A stretch of DNA of 64,000 nt from a virus, in the UHGV virus genome UHGV-1430452; one strand, written 5' to 3'. A program made the translations under genes and the position numbers. The notes under the pieces were generated by a model. It worked only from the letters and a program-made list of their open reading frames with translations. It was not told where the DNA came from and ran no database searches. Below are positions 4,038 to 63,640 of this stretch, piece by piece (position 1 is the first letter of the stretch; each line of letters starts with the position of its first letter).

Positions 4038-4039
4038 TA

Positions 4040-5270: not shown

Positions 5271-5277
5271 TATCTCT

Positions 5278-5305
5278 TCATTAAAGCCGTTGTATTTTTC
5301 GCGAT
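5278..5305 (-). promoter_or_regulatory. conserved early-gene motif copy, here immediately followed by a terminator hairpin
   Basis: ttcattaaagccgttgtatttttcgcga; lies between the stop of 5311..5601 and the hairpin at 5231..5270. Confidence 0.4.
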
Positions 5306-5310
5306 TCGTA

Positions 5311-17329: not shown

Positions 17330-18106
17330 TCAATACTCTTCGTAATCAATGAACGGCTCTGTGAAATCTACAATATAACATTCAATACCGTCGTCCATTT
17401 CTACTTTTGTATGGTGGAAATATAGCCAACCATCCCAGTACATTTCATACATCTGAGCTGCGGACCAACCCATAAATTCACCGTAATCCTGTCGATCAAT
17501 CTCTAGTAAATCGTAATAATCGTTTAAAGATGCACCACCGGATTGAGATAGCATTTTATTAATCTCATACTCTGCTCTCAATTGAGTTTCTTTCGTCACA
17601 CGGTAATAACGTTTGGAATATTCATCGTAGAATAGTGTTTTGCCATCCTCGTATTCGTCGTCATATTCTTCTTTGTCTTCTTCCTCGTAATGGTCTTTTG
17701 CTACAGCAGCACGAATGAGTTTGTCTCCGTCTTCACCATATAACTTTTTAACTTTGTTTTTGTACTCTTTGTGAGTTTGGTCTAGTAAGGCATAAGCAGA
17801 TGCGATGGCTGCTTGGGAATGTTTGTTTAATAGATTCGCGCCAAATATGCAAGCTAGGGTTCCTGTTCCAATCAATAAGGAAGGAATATATGTTGGTCCT
17901 GCTACTCGAATAGTCTCCCATTTTGTTAATTCATCTCCTTTCTCTTCTTCAGCTAGTTCAATAAGTTCCATTGCTTTCGGAGTAGCTTTAACCGCCATTA
18001 CAGCTGTACCTACCACTCCGGCAGCTCCTAATACTGTTAATATAGTAGAGCTGTTTTTCTTTACGAATCTTTTCGAAACTGTTAGTAAGTCATTCATTTC
18101 CAGCAC
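17330..18106 (-). CDS. membrane-anchored protein, paralogue family member C
   Basis: 258 aa; N-terminal block KKNSSTILTVLGAAGVVGTAVMAVKATPKAMELIE matches members A and B. Confidence 0.5.
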   Translation of the reverse strand: MLEMNDLLTVSKRFVKKNSSTILTVLGAAGVVGTAVMAVKATPKAMELIELAEEEKGDELTKWETIRVAGPTYIPSLLIGTGTLACIFGANLLNKHSQAAIASAYALLDQTHKEYKNKVKKLYGEDGDKLIRAAVAKDHYEEEDKEEYDDEYEDGKTLFYDEYSKRYYRVTKETQLRAEYEINKMLSQSGGASLNDYYDLLEIDRQDYGEFMGWSAAQMYEMYWDGWLYFHHTKVEMDDGIECYIVDFTEPFIDYEEY

Positions 18107-24052: not shown

Positions 24053-24649
24053 ATGACAATAGGACAAAAAATAAAAGAATTACGCAATCAACTTAATATG
24101 TCGGTGGATGATCTTGCTGTGAAACTGGGTAAGAACCGTGCGACTATCTACCGCTATGAACGAGGAGATATCGAGAACCTCCCTCTCGATGTACTAGAAC
24201 CATTAGCAAATGCTCTTGAGACCACACCTGGTTATTTAATGGGATGGGAAGAAACTACGAAAAAGAAAGAGCCTTCAATTATCGATGAAGTTACCATGGG
24301 TGACGTTTTTAAAGCGTTACGTCTAGGAAGTAATTTATCGATAGAGGAATTTTCGCATGAGATTGGATTATCTGCCCAAGACATAAGCAATTATGAAGCA
24401 GGAAAGACTCCTATACCTGTAAATATAATTAATCTTGTTGCTGATTTCTTTGGCATATCAATAGCGGAAATAGTTAAGGCACACAAAAACAGCGAAAATA
24501 GAACGCCTTCTGGTTTCGAAATGAAAAAGGAACGATTTGAACGTTTTAAAGTTTGGAATAAAGAGTTTGGACGAATACATTTTACTGATGAAGAAATCAA
24601 TAAAATAATGGAATATACAAGGTTCTTACTTAGCCAAAGAAGACAGTAA
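24053..24649 (+). CDS. XRE-family repressor with two tandem HTH domains
   Basis: IKELRNQLNMSVDDLAVKLGKNRATIYRYERG and FKALRLGSNLSIEEFSHEIGLSAQDISNYEAG. Confidence 0.8.
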   Translation: MTIGQKIKELRNQLNMSVDDLAVKLGKNRATIYRYERGDIENLPLDVLEPLANALETTPGYLMGWEETTKKKEPSIIDEVTMGDVFKALRLGSNLSIEEFSHEIGLSAQDISNYEAGKTPIPVNIINLVADFFGISIAEIVKAHKNSENRTPSGFEMKKERFERFKVWNKEFGRIHFTDEEINKIMEYTRFLLSQRRQ

Positions 24650-24734
24650 GTCTACATAGGTTTACTCTATTTAAAGGAGGTGATGCCTGAATTCAGTTCA
24701 TCGTAGAATTTACATCAAAGGAAAGGTGGAACCA

Positions 24735-26312
24735 ATGACAACGTTTGATATGAACAACGCTGTAGACAATGCGTTCGGTATGGACGTATATGCTATCTAT
24801 CTTCGGAAAAGTCGAGCCGATGTAGAAGCAGAAAAACTTGGAGAAGGAGAAACACTAGCAAGGCATAGAAAGATACTAACAGAACTTGCTGCTAGAAAAG
24901 GATTGTATATCGGTAAGATTTACGAGGAAATTGTATCTGGTGAAACAATCGAAGCTAGACCTGAAATACAAAAACTGATAGAAGATTGTTATAAAGGGAA
25001 ATATAGAGGAATCCTAATAGTAGAAGTTACTCGTCTATCTCGTGGTAATCAAGGAGACGCTCAAAAAATACTCGACTGTCTCAAATATTCGAATAGAAAC
25101 AATGGTGTATTAGTTATCACTCCTACTAAGACTTATGACGTTGCACACAGCCAAGAAGACGAAGAATATATGGAGTTTGAATTGTTTATGTCTCGTCGAG
25201 AATATAAGATGATTCAAAAGCGTATGGATCGTGGCCGTAAACAAGCAGTCGTAGAAGGAAACTTCATGGGTAGTTACCGTCCCTATGGATATGACATCTT
25301 AAAAACCAAGACCGGACGAACACTTATACCGAATGAAGATGAAGCTCCTATCGTGAAAATGATTTACGAATGGACAGTTAACGATAATTTATCTCCTTTC
25401 AAGATAGCTGAGCGTTTAACTAATATGGGTGTTCCTACTTATTATGGTGAGAAGGATTGGTCTAAAGAAACAGTTAAAACCATTTTGACGAATCAGACAT
25501 ACATGGGTAAAGTTCGTTGGAATGATCGAATGACTGTTAAGACTATGGTCGACGGAGAACTTAAAGCTACACGACCTCGTTCAAATCATTCCGATCACTT
25601 CATGCTATATGATGGAAAACATATGAAACACGCACTCGTCGACGAAGAAACATTCAAAGCAGCCTCCTCTCGCTTTCATAACGATAGGACAAGATCAAAT
25701 CTAAAACTTGTTAATCCTCTTGCAGGACTTCTATTTTGTAAGAAATGTGGTAAATCTATGGGTTATCAATCATATAGACATAAGAAAAACGGACCAATGG
25801 ATCGATACAATCATAGACAGTCTGCTAATGGATGCAAGGTTAAGTCAGCAGTTGCTGAGGATGTTATAAAAGCTGTTATACATGCTTTGAAACTTTATAT
25901 AGAAGATTTCGAATTTAAGTTAGACAACACTCCAGATGTTGACGAAAATTCAATCAATACGCAGCTCGAAGCTTTACAAAAAGAAATACGAAAATCCGAA
26001 CGAAAACTTGCTAAGCTATTCGATTCTTGGGAAGATGAGAAGATAACAGATAATGAATTTGTTCAAAGGAAAGCCGTCCATAATCAGAAGATAGAAAATA
26101 TAAAGAGGCAAATGGAAGAACTCGAATATTCGATACCAGAAAGAGAAGAATATGAGGATAAAATAATATTGCTGTCTGAAGCACTTGTCGCTATCACAGA
26201 CGAATCGCTTGACGCAGATATTAAGAACGAGTATCTTAAAAGAATCATTGATAGAATAGAGTTTAGTAGAGAGAATAACTCAGAGTTTATACTAGATATA
26301 GACTTATGCTAA
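24735..26312 (+). CDS. int: large serine recombinase (integrase)
   Basis: N-terminal catalytic region YLRKSRAD...ARHRKIL; recombinase domain; zinc ribbon CKKCGKSMG...CKVKS; C-terminal coiled-coil; ~525 aa. Confidence 0.85.
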   Translation: MTTFDMNNAVDNAFGMDVYAIYLRKSRADVEAEKLGEGETLARHRKILTELAARKGLYIGKIYEEIVSGETIEARPEIQKLIEDCYKGKYRGILIVEVTRLSRGNQGDAQKILDCLKYSNRNNGVLVITPTKTYDVAHSQEDEEYMEFELFMSRREYKMIQKRMDRGRKQAVVEGNFMGSYRPYGYDILKTKTGRTLIPNEDEAPIVKMIYEWTVNDNLSPFKIAERLTNMGVPTYYGEKDWSKETVKTILTNQTYMGKVRWNDRMTVKTMVDGELKATRPRSNHSDHFMLYDGKHMKHALVDEETFKAASSRFHNDRTRSNLKLVNPLAGLLFCKKCGKSMGYQSYRHKKNGPMDRYNHRQSANGCKVKSAVAEDVIKAVIHALKLYIEDFEFKLDNTPDVDENSINTQLEALQKEIRKSERKLAKLFDSWEDEKITDNEFVQRKAVHNQKIENIKRQMEELEYSIPEREEYEDKIILLSEALVAITDESLDADIKNEYLKRIIDRIEFSRENNSEFILDIDLC

Positions 26313-28945: not shown

Positions 28946-29281
28946 TTAAACATCAACAGCCCCCGTATAGGAAGGCTGAGTTTTTAACCAATCGTATGCA
29001 TTTTGAATTAGATCGCCTATAAGTAGTTTCTGAGCCTCATCCCATTCAATGCTAAGATAATCCATGTTGGTGTATGGAAAAGATGGCTCTCCTATGATTC
29101 TACCAGCCATATAATCCTTATCGTATTGACGACCTTCTTTATCAATGTACGATTCTACAATAATAGTAGCTCGCTGATTAATTTCTACGTTAATGGCGGC
29201 AATATGATGATAGCTTACTACTACACCATTAGCGGTTTTAATGTTTACTTCTATAGCCAAAATATCACTCCTAAACTCCAA
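28946..29281 (-). CDS. small protein downstream of the fibre gene (possible fibre chaperone), paralogue of 31724..32005
   Basis: 111 aa; shares the SYIDKEG/SYIDEHAR and YDWLKTQP/YEYLKTLP blocks with 31724..32005. Confidence 0.4.
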   Translation of the reverse strand: MEFRSDILAIEVNIKTANGVVVSYHHIAAINVEINQRATIIVESYIDKEGRQYDKDYMAGRIIGEPSFPYTNMDYLSIEWDEAQKLLIGDLIQNAYDWLKTQPSYTGAVDV

Positions 29282-31703
29282 TTACTTGTCTAAGAACAAA
29301 CCTGTTATTGGTATAAGCAACTCCATTGTTTCCCTGTCCGGTATAGTTATTTTCAACCCCACCGGTGAGTTTGCCATCAGATATGTTCAATACTTTAACA
29401 CTCGCATATCCGCAAACTTCAGACATAAGCGTGAAACACCACGGTTTTCCTGAGTATGTAGAAACAGCGCTTTTAGGCACGAAGAAGCTATGTAATCTTG
29501 TATTAGTAGCAGACCCATTATAATAGTCAGAGAATATCAATACGATTCCATGAGGTTGATTTGATACAGGGCTACTAAAAGTTATGGTATGAGTATTACT
29601 CGGCCATAAACTTCCGGTCCATAGTGTATTATTTGTAAACCTTTCGGTAACTGAACCTCTTACAAAGCCATTATCAGCAGTAAACGTCATAGCAGTTCTG
29701 ATACTGTGAGGGGAATATGAATCTGTTGGGGTCATGAGAAAATAATTTTCGCTACTCCCATCAACTTTTCTAGCAAACATTTTTACTGTAGGACTGACTC
29801 CTCCTCTATCCCCTTTAACGCTAACATAAGAAGCCACACCATCGTGTGACTCAAAATTTGCTAACATATCAGCAATATCTGCTCTTAATACCACGCGATA
29901 CTCTCCATCATAGCGGCTAGTGTAAATTGTTTCAGTAGTTGAGGCAGCATTAGCTTCGTATGTAATGATTGGATCATCATCATCTTCGAAATAAACGAGA
30001 ACATCGTCTGTAAATGCTTCATCGTTTTCGATGACTAAAGTACCTTTTACAGTAGATATCTTACCTCTACCGTTATTCATGGATATTACTGTATTATCTG
30101 AATTTTTCCCGAGATCTATTAACGATTCACCAAAAGTAGCCAACTCAGTAATTCCGTTTCTCATTTCGATGTCTGTACTACTAATAAGAATATTTCTGCC
30201 AAGAGTTGATGTTCTCTTATCAGCAACCATAAGTCCATTAGCATCGAAACCGAGGAAGTTTGTAGCGGTTTTAGCAGCTTCTACAGCCTGACCATAAGGA
30301 TCAATCCAGCTACTCCATGTTGAAGTTGAAGTTCCAACACGCCAATATTCTTTTCCAGTACCTTCGACTTTGGCTGTCTGTCTCGGATATCCTCCGCTAG
30401 TATCTTTGTACGGCATATCAGTTCGTAAATGACAGTAAGTCCCTACTCCAGACAATCCTATAGTAGAACAATACTTGAATTCGGCAACTGATGTACTAGG
30501 ATAATTATTTATGTAATATAGCGGCGGGTAATTCGAATTTTTGGTATCTTTTACGTCAAGTCCGTCGCCTTTTGGTCCTTGTGGTCCAGTAGGTCCTTGT
30601 GGTCCTGTTGCGCCTGTACTACCAGTTTCTCCTCGTGGTCCAGTAGGTCCTTGTGGTCCAGTGGCTCCTGTGGCTCCGGTGTTACCAGTAATACATACAC
30701 CATTAGATGATGGAGTATATGATGTAGTGTTGTCTGTGTACGTTACCAGTGTTCTTCTCCAAATATACTTTCCATCAGCCCACGTAGGTTGACTCGTACT
30801 CCATGATCCACCTGTTAATGTTGTCGGGGAATTGGATGAATAGAACTGTTCTTGTGTACTTTTTATGGTAGAACCCAGTGTTACGCTCAATCCATTAGCA
30901 GTCTGTTCTAGAGTAGAGACCTCGCCTTCCAAATCTGTTACTTTCGAACTTAAACCACTGGCAGTCTGTTCTACCGTACTAACCCTGTTTCCAAGAGAAG
31001 TAGTTTCCTGTACATTTGCTTCTATTCTGTCAGCATTTTGATCGATACTGGATTTAGCGTTTGTTAGATCTGTAGTGAGCTTCGATACATCCGAAGTTAA
31101 GCCATCAGCAGTCTGTTCAAGCGTGCTTGTCCTGACACCTAATTCATTTGTGGCGTTCACATTTGCTGTAATACGTTCTCTTTCTATGTTCAGATCAGCT
31201 TCGTACTCCGTTCTGAGGTCATTCACGGCTTCCCATGAACTATCACAAACTGGGCTTGTGTATGCATTTGACGTTGGGTTCTTATACGTAATGAGATATC
31301 TCGTCCATAAATACATACCAGTAGACCAGGTAGGCATGGAAGTTACCCATGACCCGCCTGTCTGTGTTGTTTTGGAAGTGCTTAAATAATATTGCTGAGT
31401 GATGCTATCAATGCCAGTACCAGTAGGACCCTGAGATCCTGTTGCCCCGTCGGTTCCATTCTTAGGTATGTAAGATACTGAATATGTTGTAGATGTATCA
31501 CCCTCTGTATATGTAATGACGGTTCTGCTCCACAAATACTGTCCAGGTGATACAGAGGGGATTGTCGTACTCCATGTACCGTTTGGAGGATTTGTGCCTG
31601 ACGTACCAGCCTGATAAGTTATGACTGTGGATGTAATTCCCTTGCCGTCTATTCCGTCTATAATGTCCGAGATAGTAACCTCGGCTTTAGCTATCACAGC
31701 CAA
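29271..31703 (-). CDS. tail fibre protein with collagen-like Gly-X-Y repeats
   Basis: 810 aa; GATGSQGPTGTG and GATGATGPQGPTGPRGETGSTGATGPQGPTGPQGPKGDG; heptad-like segments. Confidence 0.65.
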   Translation of the reverse strand: MAVIAKAEVTISDIIDGIDGKGITSTVITYQAGTSGTNPPNGTWSTTIPSVSPGQYLWSRTVITYTEGDTSTTYSVSYIPKNGTDGATGSQGPTGTGIDSITQQYYLSTSKTTQTGGSWVTSMPTWSTGMYLWTRYLITYKNPTSNAYTSPVCDSSWEAVNDLRTEYEADLNIERERITANVNATNELGVRTSTLEQTADGLTSDVSKLTTDLTNAKSSIDQNADRIEANVQETTSLGNRVSTVEQTASGLSSKVTDLEGEVSTLEQTANGLSVTLGSTIKSTQEQFYSSNSPTTLTGGSWSTSQPTWADGKYIWRRTLVTYTDNTTSYTPSSNGVCITGNTGATGATGPQGPTGPRGETGSTGATGPQGPTGPQGPKGDGLDVKDTKNSNYPPLYYINNYPSTSVAEFKYCSTIGLSGVGTYCHLRTDMPYKDTSGGYPRQTAKVEGTGKEYWRVGTSTSTWSSWIDPYGQAVEAAKTATNFLGFDANGLMVADKRTSTLGRNILISSTDIEMRNGITELATFGESLIDLGKNSDNTVISMNNGRGKISTVKGTLVIENDEAFTDDVLVYFEDDDDPIITYEANAASTTETIYTSRYDGEYRVVLRADIADMLANFESHDGVASYVSVKGDRGGVSPTVKMFARKVDGSSENYFLMTPTDSYSPHSIRTAMTFTADNGFVRGSVTERFTNNTLWTGSLWPSNTHTITFSSPVSNQPHGIVLIFSDYYNGSATNTRLHSFFVPKSAVSTYSGKPWCFTLMSEVCGYASVKVLNISDGKLTGGVENNYTGQGNNGVAYTNNRFVLRQVIGV

Positions 31704-35181: not shown

Positions 35182-36306
35182 TTACTGCTCTAACTGAGCG
35201 GTATAAACTACAGAATTAGTAACCTCAGCCGCTGATACGCTCAATGTCTTACTGGTTTTAATTGCTGTAGTTGATCCCTGTTTATACCATTTAATACTTC
35301 CAAGAGATCCGCATACTCCGGCGTCCGTGATTGACTGTTCAATAGCGCCTTTAAATACATGAGCTGTTAATACAGTAGAGCCGGAATTGTTCTTAAATAT
35401 AGTTCCGTTTGAGGAAGTAATGGTAATTGTAATAGCATCAGCTCCAGCATTACCCTGAGCACCTGTTGCTCCATGAGTTCCGATGATTGCTGGAGTAGAA
35501 GAAGCTGTCTGACCATTTGTATATGTAGTCTTCTGATATGACCAAATATATTTGTTTGTTGTTGTAGTTGCTGTCGGTGTAGTTGACCATCCACTTGTAG
35601 ATGTAGTCACTCCACTTGATGCGGATGTTGTAAGGTAGAAAGTTTCAACCTTCGATATGCCATTACCTGTAGCACCTGTCTGACCTGTAGCTCCTGTTGC
35701 CCCATGAGTACCAATAATGACAGGTGTGGTTGTGGTCGGAGAACCTGTAGTATACGAAATTTTCTGATAACTCCACAAATATTTGTTAGTTGTTGTAGTG
35801 GACTGCATTGATGTTGTCCATCCGGTAGTAGAAGTAGTAACACCAGAAGGAGATGATGAAGCCAGGTAGTAGGTTTCAACTCCCGTAATACCTTTTCCCG
35901 GAGATCCAGTAGCTCCTGTCTGTCCAGTTGCTCCTGTCTGCCCCTTCATCGCTACCGCAAACGAGAACTTCTTATTTACGGTGATTCCATCCACTACTAC
36001 AGGTATTGTAGCCTCACAAGCTTCTGTAATTGCAGCTGTTGTTGTGAATGTTATTTTCACGGCTGATGTTCCACTGTTTGCCACAGATGCACTAATTCCT
36101 TCTGGACAAGTTATATTAGCTGCTGTAACACTAACCGATGAACACTGATTTGTTCCGCAGAATGCAACAGCTTCTGTAGTACAAGTCAGACCAGTAGCTG
36201 TACCGCTAGTACCTCCAACAAAAGTGTAAGCTTCACTAGTTAACATGACTGAATACGCGTCTGTAACGTCTATAATCGTAATCTGATCAGCTGATCTAAT
36301 TGCCAT
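35182..36306 (-). CDS. tail fibre protein with GxT repeats and internal duplication
   Basis: 374 aa; GQTGATGQTGATG; duplicated block YLWSYQKISYTTG...IIGTHGATGATGQTGATG. Confidence 0.5.
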   Translation of the reverse strand: MAIRSADQITIIDVTDAYSVMLTSEAYTFVGGTSGTATGLTCTTEAVAFCGTNQCSSVSVTAANITCPEGISASVANSGTSAVKITFTTTAAITEACEATIPVVVDGITVNKKFSFAVAMKGQTGATGQTGATGSPGKGITGVETYYLASSSPSGVTTSTTGWTTSMQSTTTTNKYLWSYQKISYTTGSPTTTTPVIIGTHGATGATGQTGATGNGISKVETFYLTTSASSGVTTSTSGWSTTPTATTTTNKYIWSYQKTTYTNGQTASSTPAIIGTHGATGAQGNAGADAITITITSSNGTIFKNNSGSTVLTAHVFKGAIEQSITDAGVCGSLGSIKWYKQGSTTAIKTSKTLSVSAAEVTNSVVYTAQLEQ

Positions 36307-49486: not shown

Positions 49487-51205
49487 TTACAGTAGCTCGT
49501 TAACTCGATCCTGAATTTTCTGAATCATGTTGTGATCGTATCCAGCTTTTGCGAGGGCATTAATTCGTGCATCTCCATTACCGTATTTTCCGGCAATGAC
49601 ATCACGGGCTACATTATCAATCACTATCTGATTTACTTTCTTCTGCACAGTGTCTGGATTATAACCAGCTTTCTTGAGAGCAGACACACGAGCATCACCA
49701 TTACCCCATTTTCCAGCTAAAACCTCTTTAGCTACTTCATCGATAGATTTAGTAGGTTTTGCAGGAGCTTTAAGTAGTTCATTCACTTTCTTCTGTACAG
49801 TGTCTGGATTATAACCAGCTTTCTTGAGAGCAGACACACGAGCATCACCATTACCCCATTTTCCAGCTAAAACCTCTTTAGCTACTTCATCGATAGATTT
49901 AGTAGGTTTTGCAGGAGCTTTAAGTAGTTCATTCACTTTCTTCTGTACAGTGTCTGGATTATAACCAGCTTTCTTGAGAGCAGACACACGAGCATCACCA
50001 TTACCCCATTTACCGGCGATTACTTCTTTAGCAATTTCATCGATAGATTTGGTCGGTTTTGGCGTAGATGTAGGTTTAGATGTTGGTGCTGGTGTGGAAG
50101 AACTTTTCGCATATTTTGGTCTAGCAAAACCACGAATCATACCCCAGCCAACCGGAATGGTACGTCTTGCTACTGCTTCTCCTCTGTTACCTTCAATCGC
50201 TGTGATTTGTCCGTTTGAAACAGATTCCACATACCCGATATGATCAGAATATCCGTCGTTTGGCTGAGTCTTATCATCCCAGTTATAAACAATTACATCA
50301 CCAGGTTTCGGAGTAATGGTGCCGTCCTCGACCCAAATGCCTTTCTGCTTAAAAATCTTAATATGTTCCTCACAACCAACTTCTGTACCGATGAGATCGA
50401 CTGCTCCGGATTTGATAGCTGCTGCTGATACTGTACAATCACACCATTCATCATTAGGTTTAATAGCGTATCCGCGAGCCAAAGGTTTGTGAGAATTATA
50501 GATGTTAAGAATCTCAATATATTTACCGTTAGCTTCAGAATAACCGAGCCAACTTCTCATAACATTAAGAACGTCCTGTGCTGTTACACCCAATTCCGTA
50601 TCCTCCTGTTTTCCGTAAAAATAGTTCATGTCGACTTTACCTTTAATACCGCCTACAGTTCCGGAACTCGTATACTGATGAACCAAACAACCGTAATCTG
50701 CTTTTCCGTTATAATCAGCGAGCCAGAATTTGTACTGTTTAATCAGATCATGATTATACCAATTTCGATAGTAGTCGATATTTGCGTAGATTCCAGCTTT
50801 GTATCCCTGAGATTCTACGTACTCACAAAAGATTCTTGTAAAGTTATTACATTCATTTTTACCAAGTCTCACACCTTTTGCAGCTGCTTTCTTGACTGTG
50901 TCATATTCGAAATCTGCGAAGATGATTGTGTTTTTATCAAGACCAGCTTTTCTAACAACATCAACACAGAATTTTGCTTCGTCAAGTGCGCCCTGTTCGT
51001 TTAAGGCATAAATAAAATGGTAAGTTCCTATAATCGGAATCTTGTTGTTTTTACACCCATTGACATACTCATAGAATTTTGAATCTACTGTCTTCCTGTA
51101 AGAAGATCTAAGAATCGCGAACTCTATTCCGGAGGACTTGACTTTAGAAAAATCTACATCTCCCTGCCAATAGCTGATATCAATTCCTTTCTTCACAATC
51201 ATCAT
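49487..51205 (-). CDS. peptidoglycan hydrolase: GH25 muramidase + CHAP-like domain + four CW_7 cell-wall-binding repeats
   Basis: GIDISYWQG GH25 N-terminus; Cys/His segment DEWCDCTVSAA...SDHIGYV...IEGN; 4x IDE(V/I)AKEV(L/I)AGKWGNGDAR(V/I)SALKKAGYNPDTVQKKVN. Confidence 0.8.
   Translation of the reverse strand: MMIVKKGIDISYWQGDVDFSKVKSSGIEFAILRSSYRKTVDSKFYEYVNGCKNNKIPIIGTYHFIYALNEQGALDEAKFCVDVVRKAGLDKNTIIFADFEYDTVKKAAAKGVRLGKNECNNFTRIFCEYVESQGYKAGIYANIDYYRNWYNHDLIKQYKFWLADYNGKADYGCLVHQYTSSGTVGGIKGKVDMNYFYGKQEDTELGVTAQDVLNVMRSWLGYSEANGKYIEILNIYNSHKPLARGYAIKPNDEWCDCTVSAAAIKSGAVDLIGTEVGCEEHIKIFKQKGIWVEDGTITPKPGDVIVYNWDDKTQPNDGYSDHIGYVESVSNGQITAIEGNRGEAVARRTIPVGWGMIRGFARPKYAKSSSTPAPTSKPTSTPKPTKSIDEIAKEVIAGKWGNGDARVSALKKAGYNPDTVQKKVNELLKAPAKPTKSIDEVAKEVLAGKWGNGDARVSALKKAGYNPDTVQKKVNELLKAPAKPTKSIDEVAKEVLAGKWGNGDARVSALKKAGYNPDTVQKKVNQIVIDNVARDVIAGKYGNGDARINALAKAGYDHNMIQKIQDRVNELL
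49530..50130. repeat. 150-bp tandem DNA repeat (about 4 copies, two identical) encoding the CW_7 repeats
   Basis: Copies starting 49681 and 49831 are identical over ~150 bp; flanking copies diverged. Confidence 0.8.
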
Positions 51206-52301: not shown

Positions 52302-52967
52302 TTACGCACCTGTCGTAGTTTTCATCATAGTAGCAACCTCATCCGGGAGTGGAAGTCTTGCTTCTGTATCCTCGTCACCGTAAAGAACTGCCTCCAGTGC
52401 TGCCAGTTTAGTTGGATCAGCTGTGGTAGAGTCGATTATGAGATGAGATGTAGGTTTGAAATTAGCTACAGATACCGGAGTAGTACTACACTCCCAGGAC
52501 ATAGTAGCCGCTTCCGGACTATCATTTACAGTCGCACGAGATACTTCGGAAGGAGCTGCAAGAGCACCGTATACCAGATGCAGTTTGTAACCATGTGATT
52601 CGCCCTCTGTATCATTACCAATAAGGCTTCGATAAGATAAACCGAAATTTTTACGTTTCTGCTGTCCAATCTTAACGCCGGTTGCAATTTCTCCTTCACC
52701 GTTACATTCTGCGAATTCATCGGGATACATATAAGCTTCGATTGTGAAACCAAATTCCTCAGCGGACATAAGTGTCACATACTTAATGTTATCTGCATAG
52801 AGCGGTGTCGGTTCTGCTCCAGATGGTGATTCTGTTACAGCTGTAAGACCATTCCATGCTGCTCCTTTCGGATAGTTTCCATCAGTTCCCATTGGATAAA
52901 TTACGCCATGATCGACGCCAGTTTCAAACAAACGTTCGCCTGTTGCGTCCCATACAAGTTTAGCCAT
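52302..52967 (-). CDS. major tail protein
   Basis: 221 aa, position between head-tail genes and chaperone, followed by a strong terminator. Confidence 0.5.
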   Translation of the reverse strand: MAKLVWDATGERLFETGVDHGVIYPMGTDGNYPKGAAWNGLTAVTESPSGAEPTPLYADNIKYVTLMSAEEFGFTIEAYMYPDEFAECNGEGEIATGVKIGQQKRKNFGLSYRSLIGNDTEGESHGYKLHLVYGALAAPSEVSRATVNDSPEAATMSWECSTTPVSVANFKPTSHLIIDSTTADPTKLAALEAVLYGDEDTEARLPLPDEVATMMKTTTGA

Positions 52968-55908: not shown

Positions 55909-57180
55909 TCATAGGTCCGAAATTGGTGTGTCACCTAATGAGGGTTCTTCCTCTGGTGGAATATCTTCTTCACTTATATCCGGAGTTGGATTCAATCCAG
56001 TTCCTGTTTGATTGATGTTGCTATTTACTAACTGGTCAGCTTTTGGATCATCTGATGGTTTCATACCAATAATCTGTCGAACCTCATTAGCTGTAAGTAT
56101 TTCATTCTGCGTAAACACTCCAGCGATTTCAGCCAGTTTACTAAGAGGAACGAGTCTAAACGAATCTCTGAAGAATTTGATAGTCTGATTCTGAGATCGT
56201 GCTGTCTTTGTTAAAAACTTGCGTTTCATCTCATCGACGATTGCTGCGACAATTGGCTCAATAGTCCTTGAATAGTAGTTCAGCATTTCTTCTTCGCTCG
56301 CTGATCCATCGAGTATCGCCTGTGTGATTCCAAGCTGGCTGTATAGTTGAGCAGTTAGATATTCCACTTGTTTCATCAGGTTATTGTCGAGAGGTCTGTT
56401 TAACTGCACTATCTTTTCAGTTCCATCAACATAGCCAATACCGTAAGTGGAACCGCTTAGCTGTTGCTCCAGGTCCGCACGTCTTTCATTAGCTAGTTTT
56501 CGCCGAGCTTCAGATTTAATAGAATATGGTAGCTGAATAATCATGTCCAATTTTCCACTACTGATACGTTCGTCCATTCTATCGAGAAGGGCAAGTTTTC
56601 GCGTAAGACGCTGCATGGTAGAATTATGCTCATTGATAACCGCATATAAAGGATTCTCAACTATAGCTACCATTTTCTTTTCAAGCTTAATGTCTTCTCG
56701 TTCTCCTGTTCGTTCATTGTAAACTCTAACTTTCACATGGTTTGGATACCATTCAAGAATTTTACCAGTTCGCATGGAAAGTATTTTATATGATTCAGTT
56801 TGAGATGGATCTATATCTGTATCAACAGGAACTATTGCTACACAGCCCTCGTCAAGCATAGACATAACGATATCTTGTGTGAATGCTCTACCAGTCTGAT
56901 CGATATTCGCTTCAAGATTCAGACATTTATTAAGAGTCGAATCAATCTTTTCTATAAATCTACCGTTACTGTCTATACGACAGTGATTAATATTTATAGA
57001 AGAGACATCCAAAGCTATTCGATTAAAAATAGCAGTAACAACAGATCGCTCATTACCCCTAGTGAATCTCGGCCTATCCGGTCTATTTGAATATCCTGGA
57101 CCAATGTTACGAGAGTCATATGTCGGATCTCGGTTCATGAAAGCATTCCACGAATGCCGAAGTCTATCTATAAAATCCAT
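55909..57180 (-). CDS. portal protein
   Basis: 423 aa, between terminase and capsid genes; acidic C-terminus. Confidence 0.55.
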   Translation of the reverse strand: MDFIDRLRHSWNAFMNRDPTYDSRNIGPGYSNRPDRPRFTRGNERSVVTAIFNRIALDVSSININHCRIDSNGRFIEKIDSTLNKCLNLEANIDQTGRAFTQDIVMSMLDEGCVAIVPVDTDIDPSQTESYKILSMRTGKILEWYPNHVKVRVYNERTGEREDIKLEKKMVAIVENPLYAVINEHNSTMQRLTRKLALLDRMDERISSGKLDMIIQLPYSIKSEARRKLANERRADLEQQLSGSTYGIGYVDGTEKIVQLNRPLDNNLMKQVEYLTAQLYSQLGITQAILDGSASEEEMLNYYSRTIEPIVAAIVDEMKRKFLTKTARSQNQTIKFFRDSFRLVPLSKLAEIAGVFTQNEILTANEVRQIIGMKPSDDPKADQLVNSNINQTGTGLNPTPDISEEDIPPEEEPSLGDTPISDL

Positions 57181-57194: not shown

Positions 57195-57791
57195 CTATGG
57201 TGTTGATGGATTAAGACTTTCAGCGATTTTAGCGTCTATGTATGAATGTATTTCAGCTATATCCGCTTCCGTCCAATAATCAGTACCTCTGACAGGTGTC
57301 TTCCCATCAGTACCAGGATCTCCTTTTGGTCCAGCATCACCAGTATCACCTTTTGGTCCCTGAACACCCTGTTCACCTTGAGGTCCGGTTAATCCTGTAT
57401 CTCCCTTTGGACCCTGAATACCTTGTTCACCTTGAGGTCCAGTAGCTCCGGTATCACCTTTTGGTCCCTGGATACCCTGTTCACCTTTCGGGCCTGTAGC
57501 TCCGGTATCACCTTTCGGACCTTTAAGACTAGCTAACCATTCAGTCTCGCTTCCTTCGAAACCAGTAGAAAGCGCTACTTGATAAGCAGAATCACCTGGA
57601 TCTCCTTTTTCACCAGGAGGGCCAGGAGTGGTTGAACCAGTTCCTCCGTTAGTAATGAGCTCGCATAATTCCCAAAGCAATTCTTCAGCTCTAGACTGAG
57701 GTCTCGGCAATCCTTCAGTACCTTTCTGTAAGATAGTATTTTTCATATATTCTTCAAATCTACTATCCGGTATGTATGTTTCATCGATCAT
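57195..57791 (-). CDS. collagen-like repeat protein
   Basis: 198 aa; GPKGDTGATGPKGEQGIQGPKGDTGATGPQGEQGIQGPKGDTGLTGPQGEQGVQGPKGDTGDAGPKGDPG. Confidence 0.55.
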   Translation of the reverse strand: MIDETYIPDSRFEEYMKNTILQKGTEGLPRPQSRAEELLWELCELITNGGTGSTTPGPPGEKGDPGDSAYQVALSTGFEGSETEWLASLKGPKGDTGATGPKGEQGIQGPKGDTGATGPQGEQGIQGPKGDTGLTGPQGEQGVQGPKGDTGDAGPKGDPGTDGKTPVRGTDYWTEADIAEIHSYIDAKIAESLNPSTP

Positions 57792-57809
57792 TTTGTCACC
57801 TCTAAGTGC

Positions 57810-58055
57810 TTAGAGTTCAATTCCTTCAATGGCTGCTCTTACCTCAAGACATCTGAGATACTCGCCCATGTAACGTTTCTGCTCCTGAAGTTTTGCTATC
57901 GGGCAAGTTGGTTTGAAGTCGAGAACTCCTGCTTCATGTTTTACAAGCATCTGATGTAATTTGTCATATCGAATCTTTGTCTGATAATACTCAGCTTTAA
58001 AACGATCTTTATAATCGGAACTATTCATAAGTTCAATCGTGTCTTTTAACTCCAT
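57810..58055 (-). CDS. hypothetical protein
   Basis: 81-aa ORF; AAGGAGG RBS. Confidence 0.4.
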   Translation of the reverse strand: MELKDTIELMNSSDYKDRFKAEYYQTKIRYDKLHQMLVKHEAGVLDFKPTCPIAKLQEQKRYMGEYLRCLEVRAAIEGIEL

Positions 58056-58144: not shown

Positions 58145-59878
58145 CTATTCAAAAGCATCCTTGTTCAGTTTATAAGCAACGAACGCATCCATAAGTGCTG
58201 CAACGCAGTCAATCTTATGCTCTCGTTTGCGTTTATAAAGTTTTCTGTTACCGTTGGTGTCTTCAAGGGTGATACAGTTTCCCATAGCAAACGACATGAT
58301 CTCTTCATCGAATCGAAGCATTCTCTCTTCAGAAAGGTTCTTTAATTCTCCAAGAGGAATAGATTCTGTCTTTGCTCCCTGAATTACTTTCTCAATACCA
58401 AACGGACCATTCTCGGTTTCCCATCTATTAACAAATTCCTTTGCTCCATACGGGTCAAAGCCGAAACACCGAACATCGTAATCACTATCGATAATATGTT
58501 TATCCAGATCGTCGTAAACTTGCATCATATCGAGGATCGCACCGTCGAGAACTATCAAACTACCTTCATTCATAAACTGATCGTATTTCGTCCGCATAGC
58601 TGCTGGTAATTTCATCAGAGTTAATGAAGAAATATAGTTTCTAGTCTTAATACCGAACGTTCCATCCTGTAAAGGGAACATAAATGAGAATGAGCAAAAG
58701 TCGTCTCCCTGCGATAAGTCTGCTCCCATAGCACAAGGTAATCCCCAGTAATCTCTACGTCTATGAGGTATTGTCTCTTCATAAGTAAAGTAATAGGTAT
58801 AACCTTCCAACGGGATTCCAAATCTTTTCGCAAGAATATCGTTCTTTGCTGCTGGGTTCTGTTCGGCTCTTTCCACGTCAAGCTGATATGCTTCAGGGCT
58901 AACGGTCTTTCCAATATTCGGATTAGCCTTAAGCCACATTTCTGGATTTCCTACTTCCTCAATATCATCGAGCTTATACCACCAGATTGATACGTGAGGA
59001 TTAGTGTACTCGTCTCGAAGAATCTTAGATAATTCCATTTTGATTGTGTCGCCGCTACCATTTCGTACAGTACCTTCTGAACTGGTTGCCACAATAAGAT
59101 AATCATCATTTTTTGAGGCACCCTGTTCAACAGCACCAACGACGTCTTCTCGTACATCTCCTGATAGCCATTCATCTATAGTGGAGATCTTATCTCTTCG
59201 TGACTGCAATTTATCGATGGACATTGGTAGAACTTCGATTATTGAATTTGTAAGGAAGTTCTCTACACCCTTTTTCGTACTAGCTAACTTCTGTCGATTC
59301 GCCCTTGAGCCTGTAGTATTCTGTAAAGAGCCCTCTGTTAAGAATTTAAACAAAGGACCTCTAGCTCTTGCTATAGCTGTACGAATAGGAGCTAATGTTG
59401 CTTCTGATTGTCTCATTGTCGGCGCGGTTACTAATTGCTGAGTAGTACTCGTGTCGACATTTAAAAAATAAGCCTGAATACATGCCGCATACATCGATTT
59501 AGCAGCACCTCTGGCTACGATCAAATACTGTTTGTTAACCAGTCGTTTCTTAATTCTCTTGGTAACATATCGTCCTTCGTCGTAGTCATAGACTGATCGT
59601 TCAACGAAGTAATACCAACCGAAAATCTGTTCCGCCCAAAGTTTAAACGAATCAAGTAAATGTAGATCTTCGCCATCAGTTAATGTGAGTTCGTTCTCAC
59701 AATAATTAATAAAACCCTGGATCGCTTGGTCGTCATACCAAATTCCAGGGTTAGCTATAAGATCATCTATTCGATTCATCTCCATCGAGATTTCTTTACA
59801 TATTGGGATTTCTCCTCGCATGACCGCCTCTCTAAAGCGGCCGTAATATTTCGGAACAGCCGTGTTTGAAAGACTCAT
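58145..59878 (-). CDS. terL: terminase large subunit
   Basis: 577 aa; Walker A-like LIVARGAAKSMYAA; ATPase and nuclease halves in the usual order. Confidence 0.8.
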   Translation of the reverse strand: MSLSNTAVPKYYGRFREAVMRGEIPICKEISMEMNRIDDLIANPGIWYDDQAIQGFINYCENELTLTDGEDLHLLDSFKLWAEQIFGWYYFVERSVYDYDEGRYVTKRIKKRLVNKQYLIVARGAAKSMYAACIQAYFLNVDTSTTQQLVTAPTMRQSEATLAPIRTAIARARGPLFKFLTEGSLQNTTGSRANRQKLASTKKGVENFLTNSIIEVLPMSIDKLQSRRDKISTIDEWLSGDVREDVVGAVEQGASKNDDYLIVATSSEGTVRNGSGDTIKMELSKILRDEYTNPHVSIWWYKLDDIEEVGNPEMWLKANPNIGKTVSPEAYQLDVERAEQNPAAKNDILAKRFGIPLEGYTYYFTYEETIPHRRRDYWGLPCAMGADLSQGDDFCSFSFMFPLQDGTFGIKTRNYISSLTLMKLPAAMRTKYDQFMNEGSLIVLDGAILDMMQVYDDLDKHIIDSDYDVRCFGFDPYGAKEFVNRWETENGPFGIEKVIQGAKTESIPLGELKNLSEERMLRFDEEIMSFAMGNCITLEDTNGNRKLYKRKREHKIDCVAALMDAFVAYKLNKDAFE

Positions 59879-59921: not shown

Positions 59922-60494
59922 TTAACGACCATAACGAGCATTGTTCAATATTCTTGACACATAGGTTCGTCCAGTCTTTTTGTATGCTTCTTGAGATTCG
60001 AGCAACATAGCATCTGCCTTATCAGATAATCTTGAAGCATCTTCGAACATTTTATTATACTCCTTAGCATCTGCTGTTTTGTTCTGTGCAGAAGCTATAA
60101 ATCTTGAAACTGCGTTTTTACCAAGTTTCTTGCGCTGCTCTTTAACCTGATTCCACTTTGCATCAGCAACATCACTAGCTTTTGATGCTGCATCAACCTT
60201 TTTAGAATAATCTTTTACTGCTGATTTTTTGGCATCTACTTTCGCTTTCTTTATGTCGGCTTTTGCTTCTCTTAAAGAAGCCTTAGCTGCATCTCTTTGG
60301 ATCTTATTACCTTTTCGAATAGCTCCAATACCGTTCAACTGACCAGAATTCCTAGCTGCTTTACGAGCTTCTAATCCATCAGCTCTGGCTTTCTTAGAGG
60401 CTTGTCTAAAGGTCGGCTGATCGCTTCTCCTTCTAACTCCCCACTTCATGCCTTTTACACCGTAGTGCATTAATTTGTCATCATAGTATCCCAT
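59922..60494 (-). CDS. leader-sharing paralogue 4 (190 aa, Lys/Ala-rich coiled-coil)
   Basis: N-terminus LMHYGVKGMKWGVRRR shared with the three genes upstream; sits in the usual small-terminase slot. Confidence 0.5.
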   Translation of the reverse strand: MGYYDDKLMHYGVKGMKWGVRRRSDQPTFRQASKKARADGLEARKAARNSGQLNGIGAIRKGNKIQRDAAKASLREAKADIKKAKVDAKKSAVKDYSKKVDAASKASDVADAKWNQVKEQRKKLGKNAVSRFIASAQNKTADAKEYNKMFEDASRLSDKADAMLLESQEAYKKTGRTYVSRILNNARYGR

Positions 60495-60523
60495 TTTGAA
60501 TTTTCACCTCTTATCTCAAATAG

Positions 60524-61660
60524 TTATGTGTTCCCGGACAGCATCCCAATGATTTCTCTATCCGATAGTTTCGTGTTCGGATGTTGTTTACGATAATTAT
60601 TTATCGCTTTTGTGTTAAAAGCATATGATACTCCTACTGGAACAGTTGCTCCCAAAGCATACGTAGCTCCCTTTTTTGAGCCAGTTATTATTTTGTTGAC
60701 GTAGTCTTCAGCTTTCTGTATTTTCTTAGCTTGATCAAGATTCTTTGAAATCTCATCAACCGTTAATTCTCTAAAATTAGTTACAGAAATCTTTCCTTTC
60801 GCATCAAATACTATGAGAGGATTTTTTGTCTTGTAGTCATTAAACTTCATATCGTTAATGTCTTGAATAGCATTATATCCTTTTGATTTCATAGCACTAT
60901 AAAATGTTTTGGATGAATATGAATCATGATTCCCAGCTAATTTAGAATTGAAATTTTCATACAGTTTTGATAACTCACTATCTGTATACGTTCCGAATTT
61001 AGCAAATCTTATAGGCTTTTCATTCGAACTTATAGAGCTTGGTAGATTATGTACATACTCTGCGAACTTTTTATCATTCTTATAAAGATCTTTGAATACT
61101 TTCTTCGCATTATTCTTAGAAGCAACTTTGACATCATCTTTAACTAATAAAGACATCACATATGCTTTTCCAGTCTGTTGATATCGTTCTCTACCAAGTT
61201 TACCTGCATATTTTATGTTATCGGTTTTCTTGTATGAAGCGAAGAAATTATCGTATAACTTTCCTCCGGTATCTTTCATCTCTACTCGTTGCAACAACTT
61301 TCCAGACTTTATAGTTTTATCACAGTAATCTTTAATGTACTTATTTGTTGCATATGCAGCTATCGAAGCAACTGTGATACCGGCTGTTATGGCTATGATT
61401 TTCTCAGTTTTGATACGTCTATCAGCCGCCATCTTAGCCTGTTTAGGACTCATCCCTTTGCTAATATACTTAGATTCAATCCTCGATCTGTGACTCGATC
61501 TATTTGTGCTCTTATCGGATTCGTTTTGGTATTTATTCTTTCCAGCATTAGTGAGAGAACCGTCTTTATTTTGGTAACGTCTTATTCCCCATTTCATGCC
61601 TTTTACACCGTAATGGTAGAGTTCATCTGTAGAAGTTATTCTTGAAATTGCATACTCCAT
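60524..61660 (-). CDS. leader-sharing paralogue 3 (378 aa)
   Basis: N-terminus ELYHYGVKGMKWGIRRYQNKDGSLT; C-terminal block homologous to paralogue 2. Confidence 0.5.
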   Translation of the reverse strand: MEYAISRITSTDELYHYGVKGMKWGIRRYQNKDGSLTNAGKNKYQNESDKSTNRSSHRSRIESKYISKGMSPKQAKMAADRRIKTEKIIAITAGITVASIAAYATNKYIKDYCDKTIKSGKLLQRVEMKDTGGKLYDNFFASYKKTDNIKYAGKLGRERYQQTGKAYVMSLLVKDDVKVASKNNAKKVFKDLYKNDKKFAEYVHNLPSSISSNEKPIRFAKFGTYTDSELSKLYENFNSKLAGNHDSYSSKTFYSAMKSKGYNAIQDINDMKFNDYKTKNPLIVFDAKGKISVTNFRELTVDEISKNLDQAKKIQKAEDYVNKIITGSKKGATYALGATVPVGVSYAFNTKAINNYRKQHPNTKLSDREIIGMLSGNT

Positions 61661-61677
61661 TTTGACTCACCTACCTC

Positions 61678-62736
61678 TTAACTCAAATACTTATCAAGTT
61701 TACGGTTCACATAAGAATCGCACTCCGACACACTCTTCGTTCCGAGCTTAGATACGAAACCAACTGTATTAGCTCCGATTTCCTTAACGATTCTTTCTGA
61801 ATTGTATTTTCGATACAGCTTGTCTACAATTTTAGGATTCGCTTCGGTTACAGACTGAAGTTTCACCGAATCTGTATCAAACACAATCATAGGTCTTTTC
61901 GCATGATAACTTGAATACTCCTTATCGTTATAGTCAAGTAAAGCATTATAACCTTTCTTCTTTAACTCTGAGTAGAAACGATTTTGTGCAGCTATCTCTT
62001 GTTGATTATGGTTTACAAGGGATAGATTCAGAGCCTTATAGATAGCCACCTTTTCAGAATTTCTAAGTTTACTTGGATCTTTCTCCAAAGCATTTTGAGC
62101 TTGTTTAAATAGAACCTGTTGAGTAGGTCGCCGCATCTTCTCTTTAGAGTCAGCTATCGAAGCCTCTACATTCTTCTTAAACTCTGGCTCTTTCAATAAG
62201 TTTGCGGTTATGTAGCCAGCGTTCTCATCTGACGGAACTTTCAACTTCTTCACAGTTTCCAGTTTCAACTGATAAACCTTCATATTATTGCTTTTATCTC
62301 TTAGAGATTTTGCAACGTTGAAATCTTCCTCACTGCCGGTTGCCTCAGCCTGTTTCTCAGCACGTCTTGCATCCGAAGCAGCTCTACTCGTAAGATTCTT
62401 ACCAAATAATCCGAGATACTTATCCATGTCTTTCTTTTTATATGTAGCGTAGAATGCGAAATTCTCGAATTCTTTTGAAGTCTGGATTCGAGCGAATGTA
62501 GTACCTTTTCTTAAATATGTATCAACGTACTGCTTACCTGTGACTTGAGTTTTGACAGTGTTTTTTAATTCAGAAACTTTCATACTCATTAACGTAGTCT
62601 TTTTCTGTGTGATATGAGTATCTGAAGAATTCTGATATCGTTTCTTACCAGATGGTGTCAATGTTCCGTCAGCATACTGATATCTCCTAACACCCCACTT
62701 TTGACCTTTAACGCCGTGATGATAAAGTTCTTCCAT
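61678..62736 (-). CDS. leader-sharing paralogue 2 (352 aa)
   Basis: N-terminus MEELYHHGVKGQKWGVRRYQYADGTLT. Confidence 0.5.
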   Translation of the reverse strand: MEELYHHGVKGQKWGVRRYQYADGTLTPSGKKRYQNSSDTHITQKKTTLMSMKVSELKNTVKTQVTGKQYVDTYLRKGTTFARIQTSKEFENFAFYATYKKKDMDKYLGLFGKNLTSRAASDARRAEKQAEATGSEEDFNVAKSLRDKSNNMKVYQLKLETVKKLKVPSDENAGYITANLLKEPEFKKNVEASIADSKEKMRRPTQQVLFKQAQNALEKDPSKLRNSEKVAIYKALNLSLVNHNQQEIAAQNRFYSELKKKGYNALLDYNDKEYSSYHAKRPMIVFDTDSVKLQSVTEANPKIVDKLYRKYNSERIVKEIGANTVGFVSKLGTKSVSECDSYVNRKLDKYLS

Positions 62737-62739
62737 AAC

Positions 62740-63285
62740 TTACTTACCACTTAGCGCTTTGATGGCTAAAGCAATGCTTAATGCCGACCCGGTTACTGCT
62801 AAAACATCACCGGTGGTTTCTAGCATTCTACTAGCATACTCGCGTCCTTTCGTGGTTTTTTGAGGAGCAAACATATCATTATATTGTTTCTCCAAAAGAG
62901 CTCTATTAATCTGATCACGCATTTCTTTATCGGTCATGTTGCTTAAGTCCATCTTTTGTTTCGGATTATTTCTGATAGACTTATCGGTCATGGTCTTTAT
63001 ATTACGGCTCAGTCCAGCAGTAGCATCGGTCAAAGATTTGGTTCTTTCCAAGTCTTCTTTAACATATCGTCTAGCATCTGCTATGTTGTCAGTTCGACCG
63101 TTCTTTTTAGACTGCTTATAATAAGTACCAGTAGACTCATCATACTTATTAAATTCTTTTTCTCTAGAGTCTCTTTCATATCTCTTCTGACCTTTTTCAG
63201 TAAGAGTACCATCCTTGTTCTGGTATCTTCTTACTCCCCATTTCATGCCTTTAATTCCATGATGATAGAGTTCATTATTGTCCAT
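62740..63285 (-). CDS. leader-sharing paralogue 1 (181 aa)
   Basis: N-terminus NELYHHGIKGMKWGVRRYQNKDGTLT; C-terminal hydrophobic helix. Confidence 0.5.
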   Translation of the reverse strand: MDNNELYHHGIKGMKWGVRRYQNKDGTLTEKGQKRYERDSREKEFNKYDESTGTYYKQSKKNGRTDNIADARRYVKEDLERTKSLTDATAGLSRNIKTMTDKSIRNNPKQKMDLSNMTDKEMRDQINRALLEKQYNDMFAPQKTTKGREYASRMLETTGDVLAVTGSALSIALAIKALSGK

Positions 63286-63640
63286 TTTGAATTACCTCCT
63301 TTCCAGTTTGTTCTGCCTCCACATTAAGTCTCCATTCAAGCTCGTTGATCATCTGTTTCATGGCTTCCATTACAGCAGAGCTAAGAGGAGGATCGAAAAT
63401 AAGTCTAACCTTTAGATACATATAGGTTTTTACAGCCTCGAAGTTTTTGTTATCGGTCGGAAGAAATTCATCCCATGTAGTAAACTTATCCGTGATATGA
63501 AATCCATTACTAGGACCAACTCCCAACTGACTAAGTATCATGAATACAGAATTGATATGCATGATGATATCAGAATCAAAGTGCTCATAATCTTCTGTTA
63601 TACCGAGCATCTTTTTAACTGATGTAAGTATACTTTCCAA
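63275..63640 (-). CDS. gp6-like head-tail connector / DNA-packaging family protein (putative)
   Basis: 121 aa; N-terminal pattern SVKKMLGITEDYEHFDSDIIMHINSVFMILSQ resembles the gp6-like connector family. Confidence 0.35.
   Translation of the reverse strand: MESILTSVKKMLGITEDYEHFDSDIIMHINSVFMILSQLGVGPSNGFHITDKFTTWDEFLPTDNKNFEAVKTYMYLKVRLIFDPPLSSAVMEAMKQMINELEWRLNVEAEQTGKEVIQNGQ

Follow-up and report, generated by a model that had tools for sequence, protein, structure and literature searches.

A collagen-like gene between terminase and portal in a gut Clostridia phage probably encodes an accessory virion fibre

Introduction

Phage collagen-like proteins that combine an N-terminal anchor, a stalk and a C-terminal trimeriser are established as fibres (PMC3368898, PMC7048315). 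In EPclA and EPclB, which are encoded by prophages of Escherichia coli O157:H7, a collagen stalk links a globular domain at the N-terminus to a trimerising domain at the C-terminus, and the C-terminal PfC domain of EPclA trimerises and re-nucleates the triple helix (PMC3368898). FibU of Staphylococcus phage 80alpha is an upper baseplate fibre with a predicted collagen-like helix (PMC7048315), and gp12 of Bacillus phage SPP1 forms a trimeric spike whose contribution to capsid integrity is small (reviewed in PMC7602432). In the present study we describe a collagen-like gene located between the large terminase (TerL) and portal genes in 64,000 nucleotides of viral DNA (UHGV virus genome UHGV-1430452; this whole stretch is hereafter called the window). 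The encoded protein has a helical N-terminal domain (N-domain), a linker, two collagen tracts separated by a conserved interruption (the knot), and a C-terminal module (Table 1). Judging from sequence, we consider it probable (about 0.6) that the gene encodes a non-essential, late-expressed accessory fibre of the virion with a portable anchor, and not a part of the head-assembly machinery.

The window protein appears to work like the known phage collagen-like fibres (EPcl, FibU, the minor tail proteins of mycobacteriophages and possibly gp12), yet it does not appear to belong to any of their families. Its own family fits the EPcl plan, with N-domain, collagen, interruption, collagen and C-terminal cap in this order and with lengths that vary by whole triplets. 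EPcl stalks likewise vary in steps of three residues, and the collagen of EPclB is interrupted by a non-collagen repeat. The EPcl proteins differ in being much larger (∼400–670 vs 198 amino acids), in having a PCoil domain, which is absent from the window protein, and in coming from another host phylum and another genomic position. A Pfam scan to an E-value of 1 returned Collagen alone; PfN (PF08400), Pf2 (PF03406) and PfC (PF06820) were not detected.

SPP1 gp12 resembles the window protein in being small, in being encoded among head genes, and in having Gly-X-Y repeats followed by a “TEA” helix. However, it has only 64 amino acids and 8 triplets, with neither an N-terminal helical domain nor a knot, and its gene, 12, is flanked by genes 11 and 13 (scaffold and major capsid), whereas the window gene lies between Sequestin/TerL and portal. 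The best BLASTP segment between the two proteins (E-value 5e-06, single pair) is mostly collagen, together with the “TEA” and a few helix positions. The product of gene 4 in RhynO, a phage of the cluster-A mycobacteriophage type, shares the knot and collagen with the window protein (62% identity over query residues 68–170, tblastn), and the collagen genes of RhynO are grouped with genes for packaging, at a distance from the tail module; the RhynO protein differs in its length of 388 amino acids, its N- and C-terminal parts and its actinobacterial host. Gp6 of L5, another collagen-like protein of these mycobacteriophages, is reported to be a virion tail protein. FibU of 80alpha is also an accessory fibre in which a small N-terminal docking domain precedes a predicted collagen-like helix (PMC7048315), but its anchor is a BppU-like immunoglobulin fold and not helical, its gene belongs to the tail module, and it has a distal part of 180 residues. 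The similarity of the collagen repeat protein of E. coli phage AugustePiccard to the window protein is limited to collagen. The original prediction, made from the DNA letters, regarded a collagen-like gene in a head module as unusual. This holds in part, since collagen genes also occur in the head or packaging regions of SPP1, AugustePiccard and RhynO.

Results

A collagen-like protein with conserved ends and a stalk of variable length

The open reading frame (ORF) of 198 codons lies exactly where it had been predicted, on the minus strand, and starts with ATG. Its product was confirmed as collagen-like by a match to Pfam Collagen (PF01391; E-value 1.9e-11) of 44 bits, which is above the curated cut-off of 27.2. 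The number of Gly-X-Y triplets had been put at about 20 and is in fact 29, with 4 at residues 57–68 (tract 1) and 25, uninterrupted, at residues 91–165 (tract 2). Position X is mostly P, D or E, and position Y mostly T, Q or K. At 8% Gly, the chance of 25 Gly in register is ∼4e-28. The description of the underlying DNA as perfectly periodic was too strong: tract 2 is built from an imperfect tandem unit of 54 bp (18 amino acids; 3.2 copies, 84% matches), the collagen DNA has a weaker period of 27 bp (63% matches), and perfect periodicity is limited to the Gly codon position.

Both helices of the N-domain open with a P-x-S-R-x-E capping motif. The knot had no Pfam match, and a PDB sequence search with it gave nothing meaningful. 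Invariant residues at and around it are S68, A69, Y70, G77, F78, G80, E82, W85 and L89, and numerous phage proteins with the annotation tail fibre or minor tail protein give tblastn matches that begin at the knot motif, from query residue 68. In the C-terminal module an amphipathic helix is predicted at residues 175–193 with low confidence; a PDB sequence search with this module likewise gave nothing meaningful. As read from the sequence, the protein has no hydrophobic N-terminal signal sequence, no membrane segment and no cell-wall anchor. No paralogue of any part of it was found elsewhere in the window. Two tail-module proteins of the window also contain short collagen tracts, one of 810 amino acids (29271–31703, minus strand; residues 340–379, Pfam E-value 1.3e-06) and one of 374 amino acids (35182–36306, minus strand; weak match), and neither shares a terminal domain with the 198-amino-acid protein.

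A search of 5.8 billion proteins identified 64 clusters of full-length homologues, 128–198 amino acids long. A scan of GTDB genomes with the family alignment returned no relative. In the alignment the N-domain, the knot and the C-terminal module are near-invariant, and tract 1 keeps a length of 3–5 triplets. Tract 2 spans 0–24 triplets among the homologues, all of them shorter here than the window copy with its 25. Ratios of nonsynonymous to synonymous substitution rates (dN/dS), calculated pairwise among the window and the related loci L001, L005 and L090 with synonymous sites near saturation, were 0.03–0.11 for the N-domain, 0.06–0.21 for the knot and 0.04–0.08 for the C-terminus. The collagen ORF is a real gene under strong purifying selection in its three non-collagen parts. 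Constrained ends and knot combined with a free stalk length are what a peripheral fibre would be expected to show, rather than a strut or a measuring device.

The C-terminal module, with the pattern DGKTP(V/I)RGTDYWTEADIA.I..YIDAK(I/V)AE, also closes collagen proteins that start quite differently, and it always lies within a few residues of the protein end. Their alternative N-terminus, MDMITYARAKKYADKAV...FDTLKEVADWI, precedes the shared module in five proteins (P0071, P0081, P0089, P0101 and P0103); the genomic context of two of these, P0101 and P0089, was uninformative. By analogy with the PfC domain of EPclA, we take the C-terminal module to be a trimerisation and registration cap.

The terminase–portal gap is a hypervariable cargo slot

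The gene had been placed between terminase and portal. It does lie between them, but it does not abut TerL, as a gene of the Sequestin family (PF21825) intervenes. Relatives of the locus were sampled as 80 loci from IMG/VR and 65 from GTDB genomes, with TerL 63–80% identical, and the following counts cover the 125 of these with TerL and portal both on the contig. The collagen gene was found in none of the 125. The gap ranges from 17 bp to 4.8 kb; it is empty (<150 bp) in 33 loci, holds one or more DUF7211 paralogues in 69 and Sequestin in one, and contains solely other genes in about 22. A gap of 514 bp is common (about 35 loci) and contains a 176-amino-acid DUF7211 gene that overlaps the end of TerL; an Rfam scan of this 514-bp gap found nothing.

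The collagen gene is restricted to a subclade with TerL ∼90% identical (L001–L006 and L090). The order TerL, Sequestin, collagen, portal is kept in L001–L006, with collagen homologues 58–65% identical. In L090 (TerL 90%) the collagen gene follows TerL after 13 bp, without Sequestin, and L079 has Sequestin and no collagen gene; the two genes thus occur independently. In L097 and L096 (described below) the same slot holds alternative alleles with tail-type distal parts, indicating cassette exchange.

The gap between TerL and portal is a hypervariable cargo slot, and the collagen gene is dispensable in the lineage. It is dispensable for head building because it is absent from all 125 relatives, 33 of them with an empty gap, and a scaffold-type role is ruled out because the gene is needed neither for assembly nor for packaging in the lineage. 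The original prediction had named homology to a scaffold protein as evidence that would count against a fibre or adhesin; Pfam and PHROG searches of the collagen protein gave none. Its further suggestion of an adhesin encoded by a moron gene fares well as to the accessory half, given the variable slot and the absence from 125 of 125 relatives, and the adhesin half fits the N-domain relatives.

DUF7211 is the commonest cargo of the gap in relatives. In the window, four consecutive DUF7211 paralogues (190, 378, 352 and 181 amino acids) are located upstream of TerL, at 59922–63285 on the minus strand. They open near-identically with YHHG(V/I)KG(M/Q)KWG(V/I)RRY and diverge in their bodies, and the conserved N-terminal tag may be a targeting signal. 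L001 has a second collagen gene (185 amino acids, Pfam Collagen) followed by an ORF of 621 amino acids, at 3475–5894, upstream of its connector and TerL genes.

The N-terminal domain recurs on unrelated distal parts

When residues 1–52 were searched with phmmer against 1.84 billion representatives, the N-domain was recovered in 44 proteins. In these carriers the domain is N-terminal and is followed by a Gly-rich linker, with GGGG linkers at the place equivalent to the linker of the window protein, and then by unrelated distal parts. Most carriers have one extra helix ahead, and the window copy corresponds to two of the three helices. The window protein matched the N-domain profile A2 with an hmmsearch E-value of 7e-30, as the only copy in the window, and profile A3, built without the window sequence, with an E-value of 2e-19. 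AlphaFold2 (AF2) modelled a stand-alone N-domain protein, P0187, as three helices with a predicted local distance difference test score (pLDDT) of 75–80 over residues 1–60. The family has no Pfam or PHROG annotation and appears to be previously undescribed. Pattern scans of IMG/VR with N-domain alignments retrieved one contig only (L090/L091).

The distal parts include leucine-rich repeats (LRR) of the BspA type/DUF285 (P0131, P0139, P0148 and P0158), His-rich fibre segments ending in a phage tail tip domain, PF24243 (P0123 and P0129), and, in P0125, collagen followed by a domain of 450 amino acids. In L097 (TerL 90%) the P0125 gene, a long allele, directly follows TerL; its N-domain is 92% identical to that of the window protein, with which it also has knot and collagen in common. 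The 450 distal residues match phrog_5302, “tail protein” (E-value 9e-80), and are 54% identical to the distal domain of gp58 of Faecalibacterium phage FP_Epona. The window protein lacks this distal domain. The annotation of FP_Epona gp58 is that of a BPP-1-like major tropism determinant (Mtd) or tail protein, and its gene comes after the baseplate genes, beside a reverse transcriptase. Because of this neighbour, the distal domain of P0125 may be the target of a diversity-generating retroelement; the two ORFs after P0125, on a contig that ends after 3.4 kb, included neither Avd nor a reverse transcriptase and gave a weak CBM_5_12 match. In L096 (TerL 78%) the slot holds the N-domain on a 446-amino-acid protein of the His-rich, tail-tip-domain form, and also a 466-amino-acid protein with weak beta-propeller matches.

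A profile search also found many stand-alone N-domain proteins of 72–117 amino acids. L092 (TerL 79%) has a 77-amino-acid N-domain gene and a gene for a repeat-rich protein of 689 amino acids, possibly a beta-propeller, between the portal and capsid genes. Reading this pair as one read-through product was considered and rejected, as they are two genes with a Shine-Dalgarno sequence between them. L098, an unrelated siphophage of 41 kb, has an 82-amino-acid N-domain gene and a 500-amino-acid gene between portal and prohead protease. In the temperate siphophages L094/L095 and L099, N-domain genes of 77–79 amino acids are paired with genes of 192–298 amino acids where the tail module ends and the lysis genes follow. 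A more weakly related form of the N-domain is encoded right after the major tail protein gene in L146 and L151.

A putative accessory fibre and where it may dock

We propose that the conserved C-terminal helix would bring three chains into register, and that these would then form a collagen triple helix ∼25 nm long, with the 22-residue knot as its single break. At 0.29 nm per residue, the 75 residues of tract 2 correspond to an estimated ∼21 nm and the 12 residues of tract 1 to ∼3 nm. The helical N-domain would plug the fibre trimer into the particle. The fibre would then most likely give weak, reversible, multivalent adhesion to the Clostridia cell surface or to gut material, or act as a spacer. 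Export of the protein on or with virions is plausible, since it has no hydrophobic N-terminal signal sequence. On this view, the TerL–portal gap of the subclade is home to an exchangeable fibre locus, and the window gene would be its short allele, reduced to the shaft.

Several observations weigh against this proposal. The AF2 monomer model of the full protein was poor (pLDDT 42, predicted template modelling score 0.20) and was not used for a fold search, and the window protein has no globular distal domain. PHROG “tail fibre” matches rest mostly on low-complexity collagen and the knot. Stand-alone N-domain genes directly precede a larger gene, which misfits a simple covalent anchor. A tblastn search of 50,697 isolated phage records found no N-domain, and Foldseek searches of PDB and BFVD with the P0187 model gave nothing below an E-value of 2.6. 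Finally, phages that share the N-domain (L094/L095) have no other BLAST-detectable structural protein in common with the window, so that a common docking partner is not evident.

As to the docking site, we lean slightly to the tail or neck over the capsid shell. The alleles and relatives have tail-type distal domains, N-domain genes occur in tail modules, and RhynO provides a precedent, since a “tail fiber protein” that is collagen-like and shares the knot motif is encoded there between the terminase subunits. The main competitor is a capsid decoration fibre, which the original prediction had also named. Here trimers on the shell, for example at hexamer centres, would project collagen spikes from the head in the manner of SPP1 gp12 or the phi29 head fibres. 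In the operon the gene is among those for packaging and head, N-domain genes stand between portal and capsid or protease genes in L092 and in the unrelated L098, and dispensability suits decoration proteins. SPP1 gp12 is itself a collagen-like trimeric capsid binder with little effect on capsid integrity (PMC7602432), and its collagen is followed, as here, by a short “TEA...” helix; in AugustePiccard the collagen repeat protein is encoded between the outer capsid and major capsid genes. However, the similarity to gp12 is not significant outside collagen, and there is none to the termini of the AugustePiccard protein. The tail-type distal domains argue against decoration as well, as do the N-domain genes at the end of the tail module (L094, L099) and after the major tail protein (L146, L151), and packaging genes are known to include collagen-like genes for tail fibres in their midst (RhynO genes 4–5, between the terminase subunits). 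We regard decoration of the capsid as a possible but distinctly less probable account than an accessory fibre in general.

The protein might instead be a shaft-only adaptor, with the C-terminal helix carrying a receptor-binding protein encoded elsewhere. Non-covalent joints do occur, since N-domain and distal part are split over adjacent genes in several phages; the C-terminal module is kept across collagen proteins with differing N-termini, and same-slot alleles fuse large distal domains in its place. However, no candidate partner gene follows the collagen gene, with the portal starting 14 nt downstream, and the chain always stops a few residues beyond the helix of the module, as expected of a simple cap for trimerisation. 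We consider an adaptor improbable.

Still less probable is that the protein is a partner of the Sequestin anti-defence gene, or a non-virion moron acting in the cell or on the lysogen surface. The two genes are adjacent in the window and in L001–L006, in a slot that holds accessory cargo. The TAA of Sequestin and the ATG of the collagen gene are 18 nt apart in the same frame (57792–57812), and a 244-amino-acid Sequestin–collagen fusion, P0044, has Tyr in place of the stop. Against this, either gene occurs without the other, and P0044 comes from a single metagenomic contig of 1.5 kb, so that the fusion may be real or a sequencing error. No intracellular role is known for a collagen stalk with fibre-type knots, and the protein lacks a signal peptide, membrane segment and cell-wall anchor. 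A head assembly factor (scaffold, portal accessory or head completion protein) has the TerL–portal position in its favour and nothing else, and has next to no probability, given that the gene is missing from every one of the 125 relatives in which TerL, portal and the protease–capsid fusion are shared, that 33 gaps are empty, that Pfam and PHROG gave no scaffold or head match, and that stalk length is unconstrained.

Genomic neighbourhood

The neighbours of the collagen gene are all on the same strand and tightly spaced with the late structural genes, in the order TerL, PF21825, collagen, portal, an ORF of 111 amino acids, and the prohead protease–major capsid fusion. A scan for a separate promoter or terminator of the collagen gene gave none, candidate counts being no higher than the shuffled expectation, and the gene is therefore probably transcribed within the late operon. 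Sequestin (PF21825) is a phage sponge that sequesters 3' cyclic ADP-ribose (3'cADPR) and blocks type I Thoeris (bioRxiv 10.1101/2025.07.12.664507). By its Pfam match, the 81-amino-acid gene of the window belongs to this family and is a candidate anti-Thoeris sponge; it is located within the late structural operon.

An acidic segment, ETVADVFNTLSEKQKTVVYAMIGQALEDAG, occurs twice in the middle of the protease–capsid fusion as an internal duplication, and probably serves as a scaffold or delta region within the fusion itself, whose capsid part is C-terminal. The window further encodes a major tail protein (52302–52967) and a connector (63275–63640). The endolysin (49487–51205, minus strand; 572 amino acids with GH25, CHAP and four CW_7 repeats) sits inside the tail gene block, just upstream of a gene for a tape measure of 2515 amino acids, instead of closing the structural operon; in L001 and L005 an Amidase_3 lysin occupies this position. 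On the opposite strand, 24053–26312 (plus) encodes a CI-type helix-turn-helix repressor of 198 amino acids and a large serine recombinase of 528 amino acids, and because of these two genes we regard the element as temperate, either a phage or a prophage. The host is a Gram-positive member of the gut Clostridia; prophages with related TerL occur in Clostridium leptum, [Ruminococcus] torques, Hungatella and Enterocloster. The non-structural part contains three DUF6353 paralogues within 6 kb (Table 1).

Table 1. Positions of the collagen-like gene, its parts, its neighbours and related regions (window positions unless a locus is named).
Feature	Position	Strand	Basis
Collagen-like gene, putative fibre; complete coding sequence, 198 amino acids + stop	57195..57791	-	ORF list, Pfam Collagen, homologues, dN/dS
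N-terminal domain, residues 1–48, two helices, proposed virion-docking module	57648..57791	-	Alignment, phmmer, hidden Markov model
Gly/Thr-rich linker GGTGSTTP, residues 49–56	57624..57647	-	Alignment
Collagen tract 1, residues 57–68, 4 triplets	57588..57623	-	Triplet count
Conserved interruption (knot), residues 69–90, AYQVALSTGFEGSETEWLASLK, two short predicted helices	57522..57587	-	Alignment, dN/dS
Collagen tract 2, residues 91–165, 25 triplets, about four 18-residue units	57297..57521	-	Repeat and triplet analysis
C-terminal module, residues 166–198, PVRGTDYWTEADIAEIHSYIDAKIAESLNPSTP, proposed trimerisation/registration cap	57198..57296	-	Alignment, dN/dS
Shine-Dalgarno sequence AGAGGTGA, 4 nt 5' of the collagen gene ATG	57796..57803	-	Read in sequence
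Large terminase TerL, upstream border of the slot	58145..59878	-	Pfam TerL_nuclease, TerL_ATPase; phrog_9, E 3e-102
Sequestin-family (PF21825) gene, 81 amino acids, second cargo of the slot	57810..58055	-	Pfam, E 2.4e-20
Portal, downstream border of the slot	55909..57180	-	Phage_portal, E 6.5e-22; phrog_12
Prohead protease–major capsid fusion, one ORF of 645 amino acids	53622..55559	-	phrog_3270, E 5e-224
P0125 gene in L097; counterpart region in FP_Epona (L166)	L097 836-3315; L166 6923-9769		
DUF6353 paralogues	12029-12967, 15042-15869, 17330-18106	-	DUF6353 match, E 1e-58 to 4e-89

Discussion

In kind, the collagen-like protein of the window is ordinary, one more phage fibre of this type. 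Of some value are the cargo slot that holds its gene and the portable N-domain at its start. The TerL–portal gap belongs to a widespread lineage of gut Clostridia phages and prophages, accommodates adhesin-type fibres or an anti-Thoeris sponge, and should be useful for mining host-range and counter-defence genes.

The N-domain links very different adhesin domains across unrelated phages. We tentatively suggest, as a rather unlikely reading in its full form, that it is a portable virion-docking module of gut Clostridia phages that mounts swappable adhesins on the head or neck. If so, one particle could accept a collagen spike, a BspA-type LRR, a beta-propeller or an Mtd-like lectin, either fused or as a two-gene arrangement, and the system would be a head-borne one for adhesion, resembling T4 Hoc or the head fibres of phi29 in role. 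The place of the adhesin cassette among packaging and head genes in this lineage would then be explained by the mounting of the fibre on the capsid or neck, and the cassette would share a recombination hot spot with anti-defence cargo such as Sequestin. A docking module of this kind would also provide a handle for predicting, and perhaps engineering, what uncultured phages stick to.

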